From Escherichia phage LH01: 64,000 bases of DNA. How positions within the stretch are numbered: position 1 is the first letter of the stretch; the number at the start of each line of letters is the position of its first letter. The stretch lies in sequence record PP434429. One strand, written 5' to 3'. The notes below the pieces were generated by a model that saw only the letters and a program-made list of their open reading frames with translations, had not been told where the DNA came from and did no database searches. This document shows positions 6,829 through 40,628 of this stretch, piece by piece. The translations under genes were made by a program, and so were the position numbers.

Positions 6829-7063
6829 CCTTGATACATGCTTCAGCCATTTTAAGAATAGAGCCAGGAGTATCGTTGTCCATTATATTAAAGCTAAATT
6901 CAATAGCCCAGTCGGTGTAGACATGAACTGCTTTAACTTCATTGCCTTCAACGCGTAATGGCTCAATCCAATACTTGATAGTGTTCTCGAATCCATCATC
7001 ATCTTTAACGTCCATTTCAACTTCAAGCCCGAGCCCAGCATTATTAAATTCATCTAAAGTCAT
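6806..7063 (-). CDS. Hypothetical protein (position of T4 46.2)
   Basis: 85-aa acidic ORF between 47 and 46; 4-nt overlap with gene 47 stop. Confidence 0.55.
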   Translation of the reverse strand: MTLDEFNNAGLGLEVEMDVKDDDGFENTIKYWIEPLRVEGNEVKAVHVYTDWAIEFSFNIMDNDTPGSILKMAEACIKDAYNDED

Positions 7064-10519: not shown

Positions 10520-10585
10520 ATTATTTTCCTCGGTTATTTTATTATCCAACGAGAGAATTATACTCATCTCTCAAGAGTTTGTATA

Positions 10586-10825
10586 TTATTTTTTAAGCAT
10601 GAAAAGTAAGTAATTTGTATCACGTGGAGTAATATCAACACCCATATCAAAGATGCCTTTATAGATTGGGTATTTGTTTTCGGTTGTATCGAAGCTGAAA
10701 CTATTTCCATCACAACTAACAGTAATAGCATCTGTTAAAATGTCATACTCAATCCTAACAATTGAATTCCCAATTTTAACGTCGAGGTGTTTTTTGAATT
10801 TGATAAAATCTAATTCTTGGGCCAT
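10586..10825 (-). CDS. Hypothetical protein
   Basis: 79-aa ORF preceded by a promoter-like palindromic cassette at ~10845-10880. Confidence 0.5.
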   Translation of the reverse strand: MAQELDFIKFKKHLDVKIGNSIVRIEYDILTDAITVSCDGNSFSFDTTENKYPIYKGIFDMGVDITPRDTNYLLFMLKK

Positions 10826-10888
10826 GATATTTTCCTCATTTTAAGACGATAGGAAGATAATAACATGTCTTCCTATCGTTGTACATTA

Positions 10889-11101
10889 TTAACCGAACTT
10901 TTTAGCGCCTTTCCAGCCTTCGTACATAGCTGCACAAGTCAATAGTACAGCGTGCTGGCATTCTTTGTATTTGTAAATCCAGAACCAGCGTAAAAAGTCT
11001 TCATCCTCAACACCATTGAGTTTCATGTTGGCAAAGAATTCGGCACGTTCTTCACGAAGTTGCCATGACACAATATTTTCAGGATTCATTTTGTGTTCCA
11101 C
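10889..11101 (-). CDS. Hypothetical protein
   Basis: 70-aa ORF, co-oriented. Confidence 0.5.
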   Translation of the reverse strand: MEHKMNPENIVSWQLREERAEFFANMKLNGVEDEDFLRWFWIYKYKECQHAVLLTCAAMYEGWKGAKKFG

Positions 11102-11220
11102 GCCCCATTTTCATCGATGAACTTAATCCAGTCATTTACAGACCATTTAGTTGTATCACCCTTTGGATTAACATTTAAAGTATATAATCCCTGCTTAAAA
11201 AGCATTCGTTTGATATTCAT
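11086..11220 (-). CDS. Hypothetical small protein (~44 aa)
   Basis: Internal Met of ORF-track ORF 11086..11313 chosen because it has a GAGGAAA SD and avoids overlap with the upstream gene. Confidence 0.3.
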   Translation of the reverse strand: MNIKRMLFKQGLYTLNVNPKGDTTKWSVNDWIKFIDENGAWNTK

Positions 11221-11227
11221 AATTTCC

Positions 11228-11521
11228 TCAACTGTAACGATAACATTCGTTAGCTTTACGTTTGGCTTCAGTATGAGAAGTATTATAATCATACTCTTCT
11301 TTACTGTAAACATCTTTTTTCAACTTACGAACTTCTTTGCGGAGTTGTCGATTCATTTCATTCTTGACTTCAGAATCAACTCCTTTCATACGTTTCCATT
11401 TATCTGAGCGGAAAATGTTTTCAACCATGTCTTTGTGGCTAACACCGTCAGGAGCTTTACGCTTACCAAAATAGTCATAATCGCGAACTTTCAAATCTTT
11501 ACGACGATATGTTTTACCCAT
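11228..11521 (-). CDS. Hypothetical basic protein (Lys/Arg-rich)
   Basis: Start moved to MGKTYRRKDLK; strongly basic composition suggests nucleic-acid binding. Confidence 0.5.
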   Translation of the reverse strand: MGKTYRRKDLKVRDYDYFGKRKAPDGVSHKDMVENIFRSDKWKRMKGVDSEVKNEMNRQLRKEVRKLKKDVYSKEEYDYNTSHTEAKRKANECYRYS

Positions 11522-11528
11522 AAGTACC

Positions 11529-11777
11529 TCAGAGGTTGATTGATACAATGCGTTTGATAAAATTCACTTCACTTACTGAAAGGTCTTTAAGACCGATTGA
11601 TTCTAAACGCTGAGTAAGCGTCAACATCGGGATATAATCCCAATGAGTTTTATTTGCTTGATAAGTACGAACGCCATTAGCAATTTCAACATGCAAATCT
11701 GAAATGGTAACGAATACCAGACGCTCATCATTAACTTTAAGGGTTAGAACAACTTTCTTTGAATCTAAACTAATCAT
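11529..11777 (-). CDS. Hypothetical protein
   Basis: 82-aa ORF, co-oriented. Confidence 0.5.
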   Translation of the reverse strand: MISLDSKKVVLTLKVNDERLVFVTISDLHVEIANGVRTYQANKTHWDYIPMLTLTQRLESIGLKDLSVSEVNFIKRIVSINL

Positions 11778-11956
11778 AGTTTAATTTCCTTCGCGATTGA
11801 ACAGAAGATACCACGGTCACAAAGCATTTCACCAATTTCTGGATATTTGATTGAACGATACCAAACATCCAGGCTTGAAATTCTGGTTATCCGTACTGCA
11901 TTACCATTGACAGAATAATACTGGTCAACCTTAATTTCTTTATCTTCAATTTTCAT
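11774..11956 (-). CDS. Hypothetical small protein
   Basis: Start moved to MKIEDKEIK (GAGGAAA SD). Confidence 0.45.
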   Translation of the reverse strand: MKIEDKEIKVDQYYSVNGNAVRITRISSLDVWYRSIKYPEIGEMLCDRGIFCSIAKEIKL

Positions 11957-12118
11957 TTTGTTTTCCTCTATAGCAGATGGTTTAATCTTAACACATCTAT
12001 TGAGGATGTAAACTGTTTTATGAAAATATTTTCGATTTGAGAGGGGCACAAGGAGATAGTGAAGTGAAGATTCTAATGGATTATATTAGAAATAGGATAA
12101 AGAAGACCAGGCACCTGG

Positions 12119-12442
12119 TCAATCTTCTATGATATCAGAGTCGTATCCTAATGAAATCAAGGACTTTTTAAACTCTGCAATATTCTTTTGTTTCTTATCA
12201 TTTAAAAATATGACAGGATAACGAATATTAAGTGAAGTGAATCCTGCACGTTTAGCAAGAGATACGATTAAAGGACGATCATATTCAATCTTACCATTAT
12301 TAGTGAGGACTTTATAAAATGTATAAGGAGCATTGAGCTCCTTTAAAAGTTTTGTAACAGTATAACATCCTGGACAACGTCCAACTTCTTCAGGGATGCC
12401 ATAAATTTCAATCTTGTTCTTTAAGTTCGAGTTTTGTTCCAC
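12119..12442 (-). CDS. nrdH: Glutaredoxin/NrdH-like redoxin (proposed GTG start)
   Basis: Contains a CPGC thiol motif in a glutaredoxin-like context (KIEIYGIPEEVGRCPGCYTVTKLL); the only RBS-backed start is a GTG after AAGGAA. Position before nrdG matches T4 nrdH. Confidence 0.5.
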   Translation of the reverse strand: MEQNSNLKNKIEIYGIPEEVGRCPGCYTVTKLLKELNAPYTFYKVLTNNGKIEYDRPLIVSLAKRAGFTSLNIRYPVIFLNDKKQKNIAEFKKSLISLGYDSDIIED

Positions 12443-12725
12443 GAGAAATAATTCCTTGATAAGCCCAATAAGGAGGATTAACAGAATCCTCACCAGAGTT
12501 TTCTTCAGGAAAATAAACCTGGATAACAAATCCGGATGCATCAAATGTAAAATAAACTGTAGGCAGTTCACCTAACAATTCGGCACGAGCATTAATTTCT
12601 TCGAGATCTCGTTCACGTCCAGCCCAAAAACTAGGATTTAGATTACATTCGTAAAAATAATAGTCATTACCGAACATATCAAACCCCTTCCAACTCTCTA
12701 CCACATACCGCTCAAAACTAATCAT
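12408..12725 (-). CDS. Hypothetical protein
   Basis: 105-aa ORF, co-oriented. Confidence 0.5.
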   Translation of the reverse strand: MISFERYVVESWKGFDMFGNDYYFYECNLNPSFWAGRERDLEEINARAELLGELPTVYFTFDASGFVIQVYFPEENSGEDSVNPPYWAYQGIISRGTKLELKEQD

Positions 12726-17136: not shown

Positions 17137-17396
17137 TTAAAATATTCTCGCAGTTGATCAAATCCACCAATGTGACTTCCGTCAGGAGCAAACACTTGAG
17201 GCATAGTCAATCCAACTTGTGATTCGCGTCCAAGCTTAACAAGAAGCTCAGTAATTTTCTCATCGTCGAACACACCTTTTTCTGGCATAACATTAATGAA
17301 TTCGAATGGCTGTTTCTTAACAGTCAGCAATCGTTTCGCATTATCACAATAAATGCATTTATGAATAGTAGAGTCATACCCGTACACTTTAAACAT
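17133..17396 (-). CDS. nrdC: Thioredoxin/glutaredoxin NrdC
   Basis: Start at MFKVYGYDSTIHKCIYCDNAKRLLTVKKQPFEFINVMPEKGVFDDEKI... with AAGGAA SD; near-identical to T4 NrdC including the CxxC active site. Confidence 0.85.
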   Translation of the reverse strand: MFKVYGYDSTIHKCIYCDNAKRLLTVKKQPFEFINVMPEKGVFDDEKITELLVKLGRESQVGLTMPQVFAPDGSHIGGFDQLREYFK

Positions 17397-17802
17397 TATT
17401 TTTCCTTTCATCGATTAAATATGCAACGCCAAATACAATACATGTAATAAAACCTGTGATACAGATAGAAACCAACAACACTGTACCAAAGAACCAAATC
17501 AGGTTATCTTTAGTAGTTTGTTTTATATCCATCTCACGAATTTCTATAGCTATAGTATCACCTTTATTCAGAAGCGTATAAAACGACGGTGATACATGCC
17601 TGTCAAAAACTCGTCCTTGCTCATCTTTATAGATGGCAATAAATTCTAATTTAGAATATTTTCCTGTAGATTGACCTGAGATTAATTCCACTACCTCCAC
17701 AGGAATTACTTTAGTTTCCATGTAAGTATTTTGACTGTTCCAAATGAATGGAATAATAGCAAAAACTAAAGCTGCGATAAAACAACGAAGGCTATATCTC
17801 AT
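17389..17802 (-). CDS. Membrane protein (N-terminal and C-terminal transmembrane segments)
   Basis: 137 aa; hydrophobic stretches CFIAALVFAIIPFIW and LIWFFGTVLLVSICITGFITCIVFGVAYLI. Confidence 0.55.
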   Translation of the reverse strand: MRYSLRCFIAALVFAIIPFIWNSQNTYMETKVIPVEVVELISGQSTGKYSKLEFIAIYKDEQGRVFDRHVSPSFYTLLNKGDTIAIEIREMDIKQTTKDNLIWFFGTVLLVSICITGFITCIVFGVAYLIDERKNNV

Positions 17803-18107
17803 TATAATGTTCTCTCAAATTTGTGGAAGCATTTACGGCATTTCAATTTCAAGTTATCACTGGTCCAGTTAACCAGTTGGACTTGGATAGTTCCACATTC
17901 CGGACATGGATGTTTTGCTGCCGATTTGGCAGCATTTTCACGTCGTTCAACCATTTTCATTATTTCGTTCCATGCTGGAGGAACGAACTCTTCTTCACCA
18001 TGAATTTTATCTCGCTGAACAAATTCAATCTTTGAACTATCATCAATAAACTTAACCAAGCCATGATTAGTGCTCATATCAATATCCTCTAGAAGACGTA
18101 GGTTCAT
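17802..18107 (-). CDS. Hypothetical protein with C-terminal Zn-ribbon-like CPEC...CRKC
   Basis: 101 aa; paired CxxC motifs about 20 residues apart. Confidence 0.5.
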   Translation of the reverse strand: MNLRLLEDIDMSTNHGLVKFIDDSSKIEFVQRDKIHGEEEFVPPAWNEIMKMVERRENAAKSAAKHPCPECGTIQVQLVNWTSDNLKLKCRKCFHKFERTL

Positions 18108-19057
18108 TATAACACCTCAATGGCATTTCGTAAACCGTCCGCTTTCGCATTCAGAGCTTTTAACGATTTAGTTTGTTCTGCAATCTGGGCTTCGACTTCT
18201 TTCAGACGAGATTTGAGGTACTCACGTTCTTCAGCCATGATATCAACCTTTTCTGCTTTAGGTTCTTTAATAAGCTTAGGTTTATACGTATTAGGGTTCT
18301 TCAGCTTAATTCGGGTACGAGAACTGTATAACATTGAACCGTTATCTTCGGATTCGTCGAACGTTTCAACAACATCCATAGTCTCTAACAATGTAATAAG
18401 TTTATAAGACAATGAACGAACGGTTTTGTTGTGCTTATTAATTTCTTCGGCTTTCATAGTACCGAGATTACGTGAGTAGTAATAAGGAACCTGGATATCA
18501 ATTGATAATGATGCGTTACCATTACCTGTTGGTTTGAATACTGCAGTAACCCAATCTTTAACATGAACTTTATTTGTACGACCATCACCGCCAGTGAATA
18601 ATTTACGAGAATGTTTAAAAAGCATATTCACTTGGTTATTGAATTCACAAGCAAATTTATCAGCAAATTTAGTTTCAGGAATGGTAGATAACCAATCAGC
18701 CAAATGAGCCTTTTTAACATCATTAACAATAGTGAATTCAACCAAATCGGTTTTAGATGTCACAGATTTAATAAAGCTCGGCTTCATAAAGTTTTTAATA
18801 TTATCGCGAGCTACAGTAGAAGATAATAAACGAGAACGTTTGAACCATTGAAGCAGTGTCCCTAATGAATGAGAATACGCATTCTGAGTATCTTTACAGA
18901 TATGATTTTCTTGGCCTGTGTATGTACCAAAATCGCGAAGAATACCACTTACTACATCTCGGTGTGGAACATCAAATCCTAGTGCACCAGAAGCACGTTG
19001 GGCATGAACGTTAGCGATAAGACCTGCAAAGTATTCAATGTAATGTGAACGTGTCAT
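18107..19057 (-). CDS. Hypothetical 316-aa protein with C-terminal coiled coil
   Basis: Long ORF, no recognised catalytic motif; the C-terminal ~60 aa are heptad-like (EEREYLKSRLKEVEAQIAEQTKSLKALNAKADGLRNAIEVL). Confidence 0.6.
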   Translation of the reverse strand: MTRSHYIEYFAGLIANVHAQRASGALGFDVPHRDVVSGILRDFGTYTGQENHICKDTQNAYSHSLGTLLQWFKRSRLLSSTVARDNIKNFMKPSFIKSVTSKTDLVEFTIVNDVKKAHLADWLSTIPETKFADKFACEFNNQVNMLFKHSRKLFTGGDGRTNKVHVKDWVTAVFKPTGNGNASLSIDIQVPYYYSRNLGTMKAEEINKHNKTVRSLSYKLITLLETMDVVETFDESEDNGSMLYSSRTRIKLKNPNTYKPKLIKEPKAEKVDIMAEEREYLKSRLKEVEAQIAEQTKSLKALNAKADGLRNAIEVL

Positions 19058-19119
19058 AATATTTTCCTCTCGTTAAGATAGATTCATTATACTCCAACCA
19101 TCCTTGGTTGTAAACTATT

Positions 19120-20079
19120 TTATGATTTTAATGCATTCATTGCGTTAAAAAGTTTAGAATACTGCAACTGGAGATTCGTTACAACACTTTGAGCATCACG
19201 AAGCTTAGCTTGTGCTTTGTCAAGTTCAACAGACAGTTGGTCCATAGTGGCCTTGATTTGATTGTAATGGTAATCTTCGGCAGGAAGAAGGTCATTAGAA
19301 ACATTTAGTTTTACTGCCGACAGTTTGCACACATTTGGCAAACCTTTAAACATTGATTTACCCGAAGTAGAATATGCACCTAGAACTTCAGCATTGCCAA
19401 TTGGGGTTGCAGTAATTGACGCTTCGAACGTTGCATTTTCCTTTTTAAGATTTTGATAGTATTCAGAGTCTTTGTGCCACCATGGCGCAGGAACCTTTTT
19501 ACCAATAGATACACGAGCCTGGATAGCGATATGGCCCTTATTCTTGATAGGGTCGATAATATTAAGCTCACGAGAATAAATTGCTTTAATCTGGTGGATA
19601 TTATCACCTAAAACTTCCAACGCTTGGTGGAATACACGAGCAACGTTATCATTCTTAGGTTTATACGTAAGAGTGAACTCGTTCTCACTGATAACCATGA
19701 TTTCTAACTTATCGTAAGTATATTTCAAATGTTTCATGTTAATTGCTTGAGGACGAATACGAGAAGCAATGGCCATCAGATTGTTAAGGTTATTCCGGAA
19801 CTGCTTAGCGAAATATTGACCTTCACCGCCAATACAAAAATTACGAAGTTTCTGTTTGGCCAATAAACGGCTGAACTCACCATTTTTAATGAACTCTTTA
19901 ACGGGTGTGTTAGTAACGCATTCAAATTGGGTAAACATACGAGAAGTAATCCCATAATACGAACAGACTTCCTCAATCTCTTCAGGAGTCTTTACAGGCA
20001 TACGGATAGGATTAGGTCCTGGAGTATATGCGTTCGAGGTAAATTCTTTGATAAGTTCTCTACGTGTAATAAAAGCCAT
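19120..20079 (-). CDS. Hypothetical 319-aa protein with C-terminal coiled coil
   Basis: Long ORF preceded by a promoter-like cassette (~19085-19115); C-terminal coiled-coil-like segment. Confidence 0.6.
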   Translation of the reverse strand: MAFITRRELIKEFTSNAYTPGPNPIRMPVKTPEEIEEVCSYYGITSRMFTQFECVTNTPVKEFIKNGEFSRLLAKQKLRNFCIGGEGQYFAKQFRNNLNNLMAIASRIRPQAINMKHLKYTYDKLEIMVISENEFTLTYKPKNDNVARVFHQALEVLGDNIHQIKAIYSRELNIIDPIKNKGHIAIQARVSIGKKVPAPWWHKDSEYYQNLKKENATFEASITATPIGNAEVLGAYSTSGKSMFKGLPNVCKLSAVKLNVSNDLLPAEDYHYNQIKATMDQLSVELDKAQAKLRDAQSVVTNLQLQYSKLFNAMNALKS

Positions 20080-20134
20080 TTTATATTCCTCATGTTGAAA
20101 AATTTATTATACTCCAACCATCCTTGGTTGTACA

Positions 20135-21130
20135 TCATTCCTTAAGAAGTTTTACTACTTGAATAAGATTAGCTCGTTCTGTTTTATTTTTACCGTTTAA
20201 GCCTGCTAATCGTGAGATTTCATCGTCAGTCTGTTGAATAGTTACATTAAGTTCGTTAATCAAAGCTTCAAAGTATTTAATTTGCTCAGCATGTTTTGAT
20301 TCAAATTTCTGAACCGGAATAACGTCTTGGTTCAGTTCATCAATAAGGTCTTTAAGAGCATCTTCTTGGTTGATATCATATTCAACTTCTTTTATTTCTT
20401 CAACGAGCTCGTCTTTATATCTAACGTCTTTTAGTCCTGGTGCTGGTCCTGAAATCTCTTCTTTAAGAGTACAAACATACCCAATACGGTATCCAATGCC
20501 GTCTCGCTTGATATCAACTTCGTCGATAAATCCGCAATGTTTAAGACCAGAGCCAATTAGGTCAAAATATCCTTGACGTCGTCCTTCAAACGTTACACGA
20601 ACTACTAAGAAAGTTTTGCCTGCAACCTTTTGAAGCTCACATTTATAAAAGTCTGTTGAACCTGAATAACGTGGATGAGTTTTAAAGTTCATCTGACGAT
20701 CTAGGCCCATTTGTAAACGTGCTGTTACGGCCATAAAACGTGTTTGGTTCTCGTTAAGATGAGCAACAATCCATTTCAAAGGCATTTTACACTGTTCACG
20801 ACCGAACAAATCAGTACGTCCTAGATTACGCAGGATGTTGTTAGAGTTAATCATCGACAGAACGTTAAGTTTATTCAGCGCGCTGAAGATTCCGTCAGCC
20901 ATTGATTTTCCATAACCTTTACACGCTTTAATAAGTGCTCGCGGCAGATTAGTATAGATTTCAGACGGCATATGAAAATCAAATTTACTAGTCAGTAATT
21001 GATGAACTTGGATAGCAATTTGCTCATAATTAAGTGCTCTGCGATCGTTATGGTCTTTAAACCACACTTTAATCTGTGAAGCACATAAACCGTTAATTTC
21101 ATGTTTTACCGCATCAGATGTAATGCTCAT
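20135..21130 (-). CDS. Hypothetical 331-aa protein with C-terminal coiled coil
   Basis: Long ORF preceded by a promoter-like cassette (~20105-20135); C-terminal coiled-coil-like segment. Confidence 0.6.
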   Translation of the reverse strand: MSITSDAVKHEINGLCASQIKVWFKDHNDRRALNYEQIAIQVHQLLTSKFDFHMPSEIYTNLPRALIKACKGYGKSMADGIFSALNKLNVLSMINSNNILRNLGRTDLFGREQCKMPLKWIVAHLNENQTRFMAVTARLQMGLDRQMNFKTHPRYSGSTDFYKCELQKVAGKTFLVVRVTFEGRRQGYFDLIGSGLKHCGFIDEVDIKRDGIGYRIGYVCTLKEEISGPAPGLKDVRYKDELVEEIKEVEYDINQEDALKDLIDELNQDVIPVQKFESKHAEQIKYFEALINELNVTIQQTDDEISRLAGLNGKNKTERANLIQVVKLLKE

Positions 21131-21192
21131 AACTATTTCCTCAGATTGAATTGGAACTCAAAACCATTATAACCCGTCCTTGGGTAAAGCGT

Positions 21193-21720
21193 TTATGCGT
21201 GAACCGTCTTTAAACGTTCTTCAAATTTCCGAAGAGTACTAATACGTTCTGCTTTCTGTTTTGTATAGTTTGCAATACGTTCTGAAGTGAGAGCGTATCG
21301 TTCGTTTACTGTTTCTTTCATGAAGTCAGGGATTTCACGAGAAGCTTTAATTTCATCAAACTTATCGAGTACTGCCTGGTCTTCAGCGATTAAATTTTCG
21401 TACATCTCGATATCTTTCTTAATGAAGTCGATATCTTCCTGGGTTACTTTGGATAAACGAGATGCTTTATCCTTTTTGTACTGCTCGTTAGTTTCACGAG
21501 ACCAGAATAATGTACGTTTTTTGTTAGTGTTTTTGTAGACTTCCACAATTCCAACTGAATCGATGATAACAATCCAATTCCAGCGAGATTTGAAAATCTG
21601 ACCTCCATCTACGGTAATCTCGTTACCATAAGCAACGTCATTAAAGAACTTGCTCTGTGCTTCAGATTTAAATTTACCGTCGTTATAATTTACCAGGTTG
21701 AAAATATCTTTAGCGTTCAT
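21193..21720 (-). CDS. Hypothetical 175-aa protein
   Basis: ORF preceded by promoter cassette at ~21737-21778; C-terminal half is charged and helical. Confidence 0.55.
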   Translation of the reverse strand: MNAKDIFNLVNYNDGKFKSEAQSKFFNDVAYGNEITVDGGQIFKSRWNWIVIIDSVGIVEVYKNTNKKRTLFWSRETNEQYKKDKASRLSKVTQEDIDFIKKDIEMYENLIAEDQAVLDKFDEIKASREIPDFMKETVNERYALTSERIANYTKQKAERISTLRKFEERLKTVHA

Positions 21721-40342: not shown

Positions 40343-40570
40343 TTATTTTTTAATCAAATTGACATAAAACTTGGCGTCTTCGGGGTGCATGCCTTCGCAG
40401 TATTCTTCAACCATGAACTTCTTAACAGCTTCATAAGGACCACTCAGATTAAGCTCAGTTGTCCAGAACTTGGAATCTTGTACTGAATCAATACGAACTT
40501 CAGGGTGACGGTTGCGAATAACTTCTTCTGTGTATTCATAATCAACGACATCAATACTAACTTTAGCCAT
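40343..40570 (-). CDS. Hypothetical protein
   Basis: 75-aa ORF. Confidence 0.45.
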   Translation of the reverse strand: MAKVSIDVVDYEYTEEVIRNRHPEVRIDSVQDSKFWTTELNLSGPYEAVKKFMVEEYCEGMHPEDAKFYVNLIKK

Positions 40571-40628
40571 TTTGATTTCCTCATGTTGTTGATAAGTCTA
40601 TACTAACACCATCCTTGGCGTTTGTACA

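Follow-up and report, generated by a model that had tools for sequence, protein, structure and literature searches.

Three tandem genes of Escherichia phage LH01 as probable diverged paralogues of the T4 NrdC.3/4/5/6 group, separated by PeSL-type promoter-hairpins, with a possible role in counter-defence

Among lytic phages the T-even group has been studied best, but no role is known for most genes of its nrdC-to-mobD hyperplastic region. One of these genes, T4 nrdC.5, has been tied to host defence. Loss of a genome segment left T4 clones unable to infect E. coli ECOR17, the host factor being Dsr1, a SIR2-domain defence (PMC9391042), and nrdC.5 expressed alone restored plating of the T4 deletion mutant on MG1655 carrying dsr1 (Srikant, Guegler, Laub, eLife 2022, PMC9391042). 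T4 clones without nrdC.5 do not plate on ECOR17 but do so on K-12 (MG1655) free of dsr1 (PMC9391042), and Dsr1 was still termed poorly characterised in August 2026 (PMC13464706). A second described system is that of the PeSLs, which are strong early promoters with a stem-loop between or overlapping their boxes, lie between non-essential open reading frames (ORFs), and serve as recombination sites (Arbiol et al. 2010, PMC2839356); the T4/PST PeSL consensus is TTTACW-N17-TAYWAT (Comeau et al. 2014, PMC4122927). Here we compare with both systems three consecutive genes of Escherichia phage LH01, a Mosigvirus (RB69-like T-even phage), found in a stretch of 64,000 nucleotides (the window; record PP434429). 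In the literature we found no description of NrdC.3, NrdC.4, NrdC.5, and NrdC.6 as one family and no work on these genes later than the Dsr1 study; Silas et al., in their accessory-gene screens, make no mention of them.

Judged from the neighbouring genes, the locus is the nrdC-to-mobD hyperplastic region. All three ORFs are on the minus strand and are transcribed in the order 331, 319, 316 amino acids (aa), at exactly the coordinates given in a preliminary description of this DNA, which had suggested that the proteins are paralogues or else family members with a common module for oligomerisation or targeting. Shigella phage SHSML-52-1 is 98% identical to this 3.3-kb region, and more than 130 phage records span it.

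20135-21130, minus strand: 331-aa protein, Mosigvirus form of the T4 NrdC.6 family; PHROG 2257, annotated at source as PF26899.
19120-20079, minus strand: 319-aa protein, RB69-type NrdC.5; Pfam DUF7235.
18107-19057, minus strand: 316-aa protein, orthologue of T4 NrdC.3 and paralogue of T4 NrdC.4; PHROG 1435.

Each protein can be assigned to a T4 counterpart. The 316-aa protein is 56% identical to T4 NrdC.3 over its full length (317 aa, E 4e-120), and its gene lies directly upstream of the nrdC.2 homologue, as an NrdC.3 orthologue should; its BLASTP match to T4 NrdC.4 has an E of 4.5e-5. The 319-aa protein matches the DUF7235 hidden Markov model (HMM) with 406.4 bits against a cut-off of 30 (residues 15-318, model positions 1-307), as do T4 NrdC.5 (420.6 bits) and IME08 orf82. 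BLASTP aligns it with T4 NrdC.5 at 24% identity over 340 aa (E 7e-11). The 331-aa protein belongs with NrdC.6 both by similarity and by its position downstream of nrdC.8. BLASTP gives E values of 8e-19 with T4 NrdC.6, 1e-26 with IME08 NrdC.6, and 1e-33 with KRT47 gp90, the full-length Tequatrovirus form, which covers residues 1-330; a BLAST comparison with NrdC.6 proteins gave 1e-27 to 1e-34. This window form is longer than the T4 type and only ~30% identical to it. T4 has nrdC.3, nrdC.4, nrdC.5, and nrdC.6 in a row, whereas the window is without NrdC.4.

The databases keep these proteins apart, in PHROGs 1435, 2351, and 2257 and in three Pfam entries. Scans of Pfam, NCBIfam, and PHROGs gave no function for family members, and none of them matches an enzyme or DNA-binding family in library and profile scans. 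Sequence and profile searches of the PDB found no relative, the tail alone matching generic coiled coils. In many GenBank records, every nrdC.x gene is labelled 'thioredoxin'. We reject this label, since none of the three proteins has a thioredoxin or glutaredoxin Pfam match or a CxxC motif; it was evidently propagated from the gene names. In the record of ATK47, an 11-nt 'StbAB binding site' is placed within the 331-aa gene; we found no domain or repeat support for it.

Our central finding is that the three genes are, very probably, highly diverged tandem paralogues of the NrdC.3/4/5/6 group over their full length. BLASTP among the three proteins found no similarity, and hhalign on shallow database alignments (effective number of sequences, Neff, ~1.3) found no link. 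The shallow profiles found nothing because the database families are too narrow (33, 19, and 4 clusters). Searched with the 331-aa family, a set of 1.84 billion representative proteins yielded only 6 clusters and no bridge from it to the other families. More diverse profiles do join the families. Thus, the N-terminal parts, which by eye had looked unrelated in the preliminary description, are so in direct BLAST but not in profile comparison.

With an HMM of T4 NrdC.4, we obtained a match to the 316-aa protein at E 9e-10 and to NrdC.3 proteins overall at 1e-8 to 1e-13, and the NrdC.3/NrdC.4 alignment spans residues 1-237. The next matches of a joint NrdC.3+4 profile are T4 NrdC.5 (4.8e-4) and the 319-aa protein (0.013), and its alignments with NrdC.5 are collinear from mid-protein to the last residue. 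When NrdC.3+4 and NrdC.5 are compared by hhalign, the global probability is 85% (z=23 versus column-shuffled controls), with the tail as the best local match. NrdC.4 and NrdC.5 also have a local hhalign match inside the N-domain (69-200 versus 34-150, z=6.5). NrdC.4 is the intermediate in this chain, as it is through NrdC.4 profiles that NrdC.3 is linked to NrdC.5.

Further links come from other genera, in which the locus was located with the conserved NrdC.10 as anchor. A single gene of 324-352 aa occupies the locus in each of Jiaodavirus (Klebsiella), Moonvirus (Salmonella), Karamvirus (Enterobacter), and Gelderlandvirus (Proteus phage), and an Acinetobacter Lazarusvirus has one 343-aa member directly upstream of nrdC. 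Family profiles find these single-copy proteins at E 7e-19 to 9e-4 (7e-19 for the Gelderlandvirus and 7e-6 for the Lazarusvirus protein), and an NrdC.6 profile finds the Karamvirus protein at 6e-7. In the reverse direction, an HMM of the single-copy proteins from Jiaodavirus, Moonvirus, and Karamvirus was run over 492 ORFs, and its top 13 foreign matches were all NrdC.3/4/5/6. A superfamily HMM made without NrdC.6 sequences recovers NrdC.6 proteins at 8e-5 to 3e-3. This link rests on ~100 residues of the N-terminal core and not on the tail; T4 NrdC.6, which has no tail, is still recovered at 2.8e-4.

We also built profiles without one family at a time and searched them over 675 ORFs. The left-out families came back as the top non-training matches:

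NrdC.3 left out: 316-aa protein at 1.3e-12.
NrdC.4 left out: T4 NrdC.4 at 1e-12.
NrdC.5 left out: T4 NrdC.5 at 6e-10; 319-aa protein at 0.03 (borderline).
NrdC.6 left out: NrdC.6 proteins at 5e-6 to 2.8e-4; 331-aa protein not recovered directly.

The alignments share a run of motifs. NrdC.3, NrdC.4, NrdC.5, and the Acinetobacter protein have the N-terminal start TR..YI..F in common. The family core consists of h-L-S-x(3)-A-x(3)-L-x-N-F, a variable insert, and a helix N-x(2)-R-L-L-x-h-A-x-R-L-x-x-G-x-D; it is followed by a strand region, a helix containing M-D-V-V-E, a variable linker, and a tail ending L-x-x-A-h-x-h-L-K. Of the alternatives left open by the preliminary description, the evidence favours the stronger one, paralogy over the whole length.

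Two candidate lines of evidence were set aside. A 29-nt repeat of 79% identity between the 316-aa and 319-aa genes (18580-18608 and 19818-19846) was taken as chance, because the two positions are not equivalent in the protein alignment. A MAFFT merge of the three database families was discarded for misaligning the N-terminal motif. Separately, genera with a single member have an unrelated conserved gene of ~260 aa immediately upstream of the family gene (positions 10561-11349, 10847-11635, 11702-12469, and 11365-12147 of locus extracts L008, L009, L010, and L013); it has no detectable similarity to the NrdC.3/4/5/6 family.

The preliminary description had noted the same promoter-like motif before the second and third genes. 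It stands before the 319-aa and 316-aa genes, second and third in transcription order, as an exact repeat of 27 bases that is 86% identical over an extended 43 nt. Two minus-strand copies of the motif ACAACCAAGGATGGTTGGAGTATAAT, at 19086-19111 and 20106-20131, are the only ones in the 64 kb, with 0 occurrences expected; they are 1020 bp apart and bracket the 319-aa gene. The reading of the motif as a promoter is supported too, by 11/12 and 10/12 sigma-70-like matches and a hairpin that covaries:

19086-19114, minus strand: early promoter and hairpin before the 316-aa gene; TTTACA-N17-TATAAT, 11/12 positions, the best in the region.
19095-19110, minus strand: hairpin CAACCA-AGGA-TGGTTG inside the spacer of that promoter, present in the minimum-free-energy fold.
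20106-20134, minus strand: second promoter-hairpin, before the 319-aa gene; TGTACA-N17-TATAAT, 10/12, with the hairpin at 20115-20130.
21166-21191, minus strand: degenerate hairpin ACCC-AAGGAC-GGGT before the 331-aa gene, between a MotA-box-like CGCTTTA and TATAAT.

Nine versions of the stem from four phages pair in 88.9% of cells, versus 65.8% in shuffles, and none of 500 shuffles reaches the observed value; in slid controls pairing falls to 20-41%. Both partners vary in four of the pairs; counted from the loop, the fourth pair is found as A-U, C-G, G-C, U-A, and G-U. A hairpin with the loop AGGA and closing CA/TG likewise precedes family genes in T4, IME08, and ESCO47. The stem has no following U-tract, a terminator scan did not pick up the hairpin, its fold energy alone is not exceptional, and Rfam has no match in the region. 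Together with the promoter boxes, the covarying stem supports reading the repeats as PeSL-type promoter-hairpins.

The element before the 331-aa gene is probably a middle-mode variant of the promoter-hairpin. We read CGCTTTA as a putative MotA box on the strength of the T4 consensus. That reading also leans on published work (PMC4122927). ESCO47, T4 (before nrdC.7), and IME08 have the same MotA-box-like arrangement with an intact stem.

Two side observations concern these elements. A fourth promoter-hairpin, TGTACA…ACGCCA-AGGA-TGGTGT…TATAGA at ~40600-40628 on the minus strand, precedes an unrelated 75-aa ORF (40343-40570), which shows that the element is not confined to the paralogue array. 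In the early-type elements the hairpin is followed directly on its 3' side by GGAG (TGGTTGGAGTATAAT), at 19092-19095 and 20112-20115 on the minus strand; T4 has the same before nrdC.3, as has IME08 before nrdC.4. The T4 endoribonuclease RegB cleaves at GGAG motifs, and read-through transcripts might be cut there.

The paired repeats offer an explanation for a cassette loss. ESCO47, also a Mosigvirus, is without the 319-aa gene and has in its place one hybrid promoter-hairpin (6979-7036 of locus extract L006). Compared with the window at 19058-19119 and 20080-20134, the left flank of this hybrid is that of the upstream copy and the right flank that of the downstream copy, which is the product expected of recombination between the repeats bracketing the 319-aa gene. 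As judged from these flanks, recombination between the two promoter-hairpin copies explains the loss of the 319-aa cassette in ESCO47. The distribution across T4-like genomes, a check that the preliminary description had named, amounts to 1-4 copies per genome in T-even and other Straboviridae genera: four in T4 and KRT47, three in the window and IME08, two in ESCO47 and Manna, and one in ACG-C40 and the other genera.

Some of these genomes show rearrangements of other kinds. In Salmonella phage Manna, gp094 (L005 6001-7038) is an in-frame chimera of the N-terminal 258 residues of NrdC.6 and the last 83 of NrdC.4; the junction is a DDEI/CDEI microhomology of ~21 nt, and NrdC.5 and the rest of both genes are deleted. 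A deletion in phage ACG-C40 (L003 4805-5215) fuses the first 70 nrdC.5 codons to the last 72 nrdC.3 codons out of frame, so that three of four paralogues (NrdC.3, NrdC.4, NrdC.5) are lost and only nrdC.6 is kept. The T4 reference NrdC.6 has 275 aa and no heptad tail (L002 7997-8894). The missing tail (…LSSKAKSEREKLIKIVDLLKS) can be read in a different frame immediately upstream of nrdC.5, from which we conclude that T4 nrdC.6 is frameshifted relative to KRT47 and IME08, be it as a pseudogene, a strain mutation, or a sequencing error.

The preliminary description had each protein end in a coiled coil of ~60 residues. We scored the hydrophobic occupancy of a/d positions in the last 42 residues against residue shuffles, and took helices from AlphaFold2 (AF2) models with their predicted local distance difference test (pLDDT) scores:

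18110-18235, minus strand: tail of the 316-aa protein, residues 275-316, ending GLRNAIEVL; AF2 helix 275-315, pLDDT 69-81; p=0.0095.
19123-19284, minus strand: tail of the 319-aa protein, residues 266-319, ending KLFNAMNALKS; AF2 helix 266-318; p=0.0005.
20138-20305, minus strand: tail of the 331-aa protein, ~residues 276-331, ending NLIQVVKLLKE; interrupted at AGLNGKN.

The tails are real heptad helices, shorter than had been described at ~40-55 residues; the a/d test and the AF2 helices say so for the 316-aa and 319-aa proteins, and a family profile matches known coiled coils. Occupancy of a/d is 83% in the 316-aa tail and 100% (12/12) in the 319-aa tail, compared to ~25% at other positions, with six heptads in each, within the AF2 helices. 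The 331-aa tail as a whole reaches only p=0.12 because its heptads are broken at AGLNGKN, and its best 28-residue window starts at residue 283. A whole-family profile matches GCN4 variants, keratin, SMC, tetherin, and the P22 tail needle via positions 278-331, and all families share the terminal register L(d)-x-x-A(g)-h(a)-x-h-L(d)-K(e).

The tails are also better conserved than the proteins that carry them. Tail and rest of protein are 73 versus 54%, 47 versus 23%, 58 versus 27%, and 96 versus 64% identical in four pairs, the last being the 331-aa protein and its ESCO47 counterpart; the last 45 residues of the 319-aa protein and T4 NrdC.5 are 47% identical. The 316-aa tail is nearly invariant within its family, while N-domains of different genera share 20-27% identity.

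The array is followed and preceded by further nrdC.x genes. Upstream are homologues of T4 NrdC.10 (an AAA ATPase), NrdC.9, and NrdC.8, and downstream are NrdC.2 and NrdC.7 homologues, then the glutaredoxin NrdC. Those closest to the array are:

21193-21720, minus strand: nrdC.8 homologue directly upstream of the 331-aa gene; 175 aa, 83% identity to T4 NrdC.8.
17802-18107: nrdC.2 homologue, directly following the 316-aa gene.
17389-17802, minus strand: homologue of the T4 membrane protein NrdC.7, 40% identity, downstream of nrdC.2.

The C-terminal half of the 175-aa NrdC.8 homologue is long, helical, and heptad-like, and its weak matches to the family profile (E 0.005-0.3) are confined to that half; they probably reflect generic coiled-coil similarity. 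The gene nrdC.7 lies downstream of nrdC.2 in the window and between nrdC.8 and nrdC.6 in T4, and the element combining MotA box and hairpin stands before nrdC.7 in T4 and before the 331-aa gene in the window. These differences suggest a cassette move.

What might such an array do? By homology with T4 NrdC.5, it would most likely supply early-expressed counter-defence proteins. The family is present once per genome in several genera and has grown to 2-4 copies in T-even coliphages. In each protein an N-terminal alpha/beta domain of ~230-260 residues, which evolves fast, is joined by a variable linker to a terminal helix that changes more slowly. Each gene has its own predicted promoter with an embedded hairpin, the repeats permitting loss or gain of whole cassettes by recombination. 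In the model that we propose, the coiled coil would make a homo-oligomer of each paralogue, and the divergent N-domains would bind different host targets. A family driven by conflict fits with the dispensability of the genes, the copy number of 1-4, the faster divergence of N-parts than of tails, and the viable Manna chimera. Taken as a whole, the combination of diverged paralogues, promoter-hairpin cassettes, and a counter-defence array with tail-borne oligomers is the reading we lean toward, by a slender preference. That all three window proteins act in counter-defence, which we argue by homology with T4 NrdC.5, is for us evenly poised at best.

A broader version of this model is more speculative, and we would sooner bet against it than for it. 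The family may be an old, Straboviridae-wide scaffold for immune evasion, in which the tail oligomerises or docks on a common partner and the N-domain captures a defence protein. PeSL-mediated duplication would have given the 2-4 paralogues per T-even coliphage, each tuned to one defence (Dsr1 being the first known), and the tails would have diverged against cross-assembly.

Several points weigh against our interpretation. Anti-Dsr1 activity was shown for T4 NrdC.5 only, to which the 319-aa protein is just 24% identical. The 331-aa protein matches the superfamily profile directly at E=1.4 and is linked only via its NrdC.6 relatives. Recovery of the 319-aa protein itself reaches only E 0.03, and what ties it in is the DUF7235 membership that it shares with T4 NrdC.5. 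When NrdC.5 was left out, two unrelated small ORFs (4.7e-4 and 0.0087) scored between family members, which means that E values near 1e-2 from small-database profiles are unsafe alone. That the tail makes each paralogue a homo-oligomer, and with what stoichiometry, is a prediction. The presence of one syntenic copy in phages of Acinetobacter and Klebsiella hosts could equally mean a general infection function.

The structure models add a further caution. The AF2 models of the 316-aa and 319-aa proteins are of low confidence, with mean pLDDT of 50.3 and 41.4, and the terminal helices are the only parts of either with pLDDT >70. Both models do have the same order of elements (first a helical N-part closed by a long helix, then three strands, one helix, two further strands, linker, and terminal helix). 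Their quality does not allow superposition, and neither a common fold nor a match to a known one can be claimed from them. With these low-confidence queries, Foldseek against viral models returned at E <0.001 only proteins of the same family; weak full-length matches were to 320-370-aa proteins of other T4-like phages.

The main rival to a counter-defence array is a general role of the paralogues early in infection, in host takeover or in organising nucleotide-metabolism genes, with the anti-Dsr1 effect as a side activity or the specialisation of one copy. We consider this unlikely, though it has the synteny in its favour: one copy lies between nrdC.10 and nrdC in Jiaodavirus, Moonvirus, Karamvirus, Gelderlandvirus, and an Acinetobacter Lazarusvirus, and the conserved neighbours include the AAA ATPase NrdC.10 and the nucleotidyltransferase NrdC.11. 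However, the genes are dispensable, as seen from the ACG-C40 losses and from the plating of T4 without nrdC.5 on MG1655 (PMC9391042). Copy number varies from 1 to 4, fast N-domain divergence is typical of conflict genes, and the lack of any enzyme or DNA-binding family match does not speak for a general role either.

A different alternative concerns the paralogy itself. A mobile C-terminal coiled-coil module for oligomerisation or targeting might have been shuffled onto unrelated N-domains, as direct BLAST and shallow profiles, which find nothing in the N-terminal parts, would lead one to think. The tail is both the best-conserved part and the best local hhalign match between NrdC.3+4 and NrdC.5, and Manna gp094 is a natural chimera of N-part and tail. 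We nevertheless hold this to be improbable. A mobile tail would explain neither the NrdC.3/NrdC.4 alignment over residues 1-237, nor the NrdC.4/NrdC.5 match within the N-domain, nor the start motif common to NrdC.3, NrdC.4, NrdC.5, and the Acinetobacter protein, and the NrdC.6 link is entirely N-terminal, reaching even the tail-less T4 protein. Finally, the notion that the three are unrelated ORFans alike only in size and in charged, helical C-termini, to which the missing pairwise similarity and the p=0.12 of the 331-aa tail might have lent credit, is already contradicted by the profile links (including that to tail-less T4 NrdC.6), by an identical terminal register and end motif in every family, and by a promoter-hairpin before each gene, and we give it next to no weight.

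If the paralogy holds, the isolated anti-Dsr1 result can be extended as a testable hypothesis to no fewer than four T4 genes and their relatives, and the paralogues would be candidate inhibitors of other defence systems. The diverse alignment should permit the confident structure prediction that single families do not give. The locus is also a clean natural example of cassette loss via recombination between promoter-hairpin repeats.

How close, then, is the array to the described systems? The 319-aa protein is like T4 NrdC.5 in its DUF7235 domain, length class, terminal heptad helix, and locus, whereas the 316- and 331-aa proteins are more distant paralogues of T4 NrdC.5. DSAD1 is a Bacillus-phage inhibitor of DSR2. 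DSAD1 and the NARP pathways (PMC13464706) offer a functional analogy only, as phage answers to SIR2-type NADase immunity. We detected no sequence relation to DSAD1 or NARP, and neither the three window proteins nor the scanned T4 proteins matched an enzyme family for the salvage of nicotinamide adenine dinucleotide (NAD), which makes a NARP-like metabolic bypass unlikely.

The resemblance of the intergenic elements to PeSLs goes further. Like PeSLs, they have a sigma-70-like promoter with a stem-loop between -35 and -10, followed by a Shine-Dalgarno sequence and start codon; they lie between non-essential ORFs of the hyperplastic region and appear to act as recombination sites for cassette gain and loss; and their -35 and -10 boxes fit the T4/PST consensus. 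Unlike the PeSLs of RB49, which have stems of G/C tracts, the window hairpin has 5-6 pairs, an invariant AGGA loop, and no U-tract. Already known, then, are the genes as annotated ORFs, the function of one member, the existence of tandem fast-evolving counter-defence genes, and PeSL cassettes. What our analysis adds is that three or four families catalogued apart, joined by the single-copy genes of five further genera, very probably form one full-length family with a common tail, and that a PeSL pair would explain the presence or absence of the 319-aa member, which is an extension of a known system rather than a new kind.

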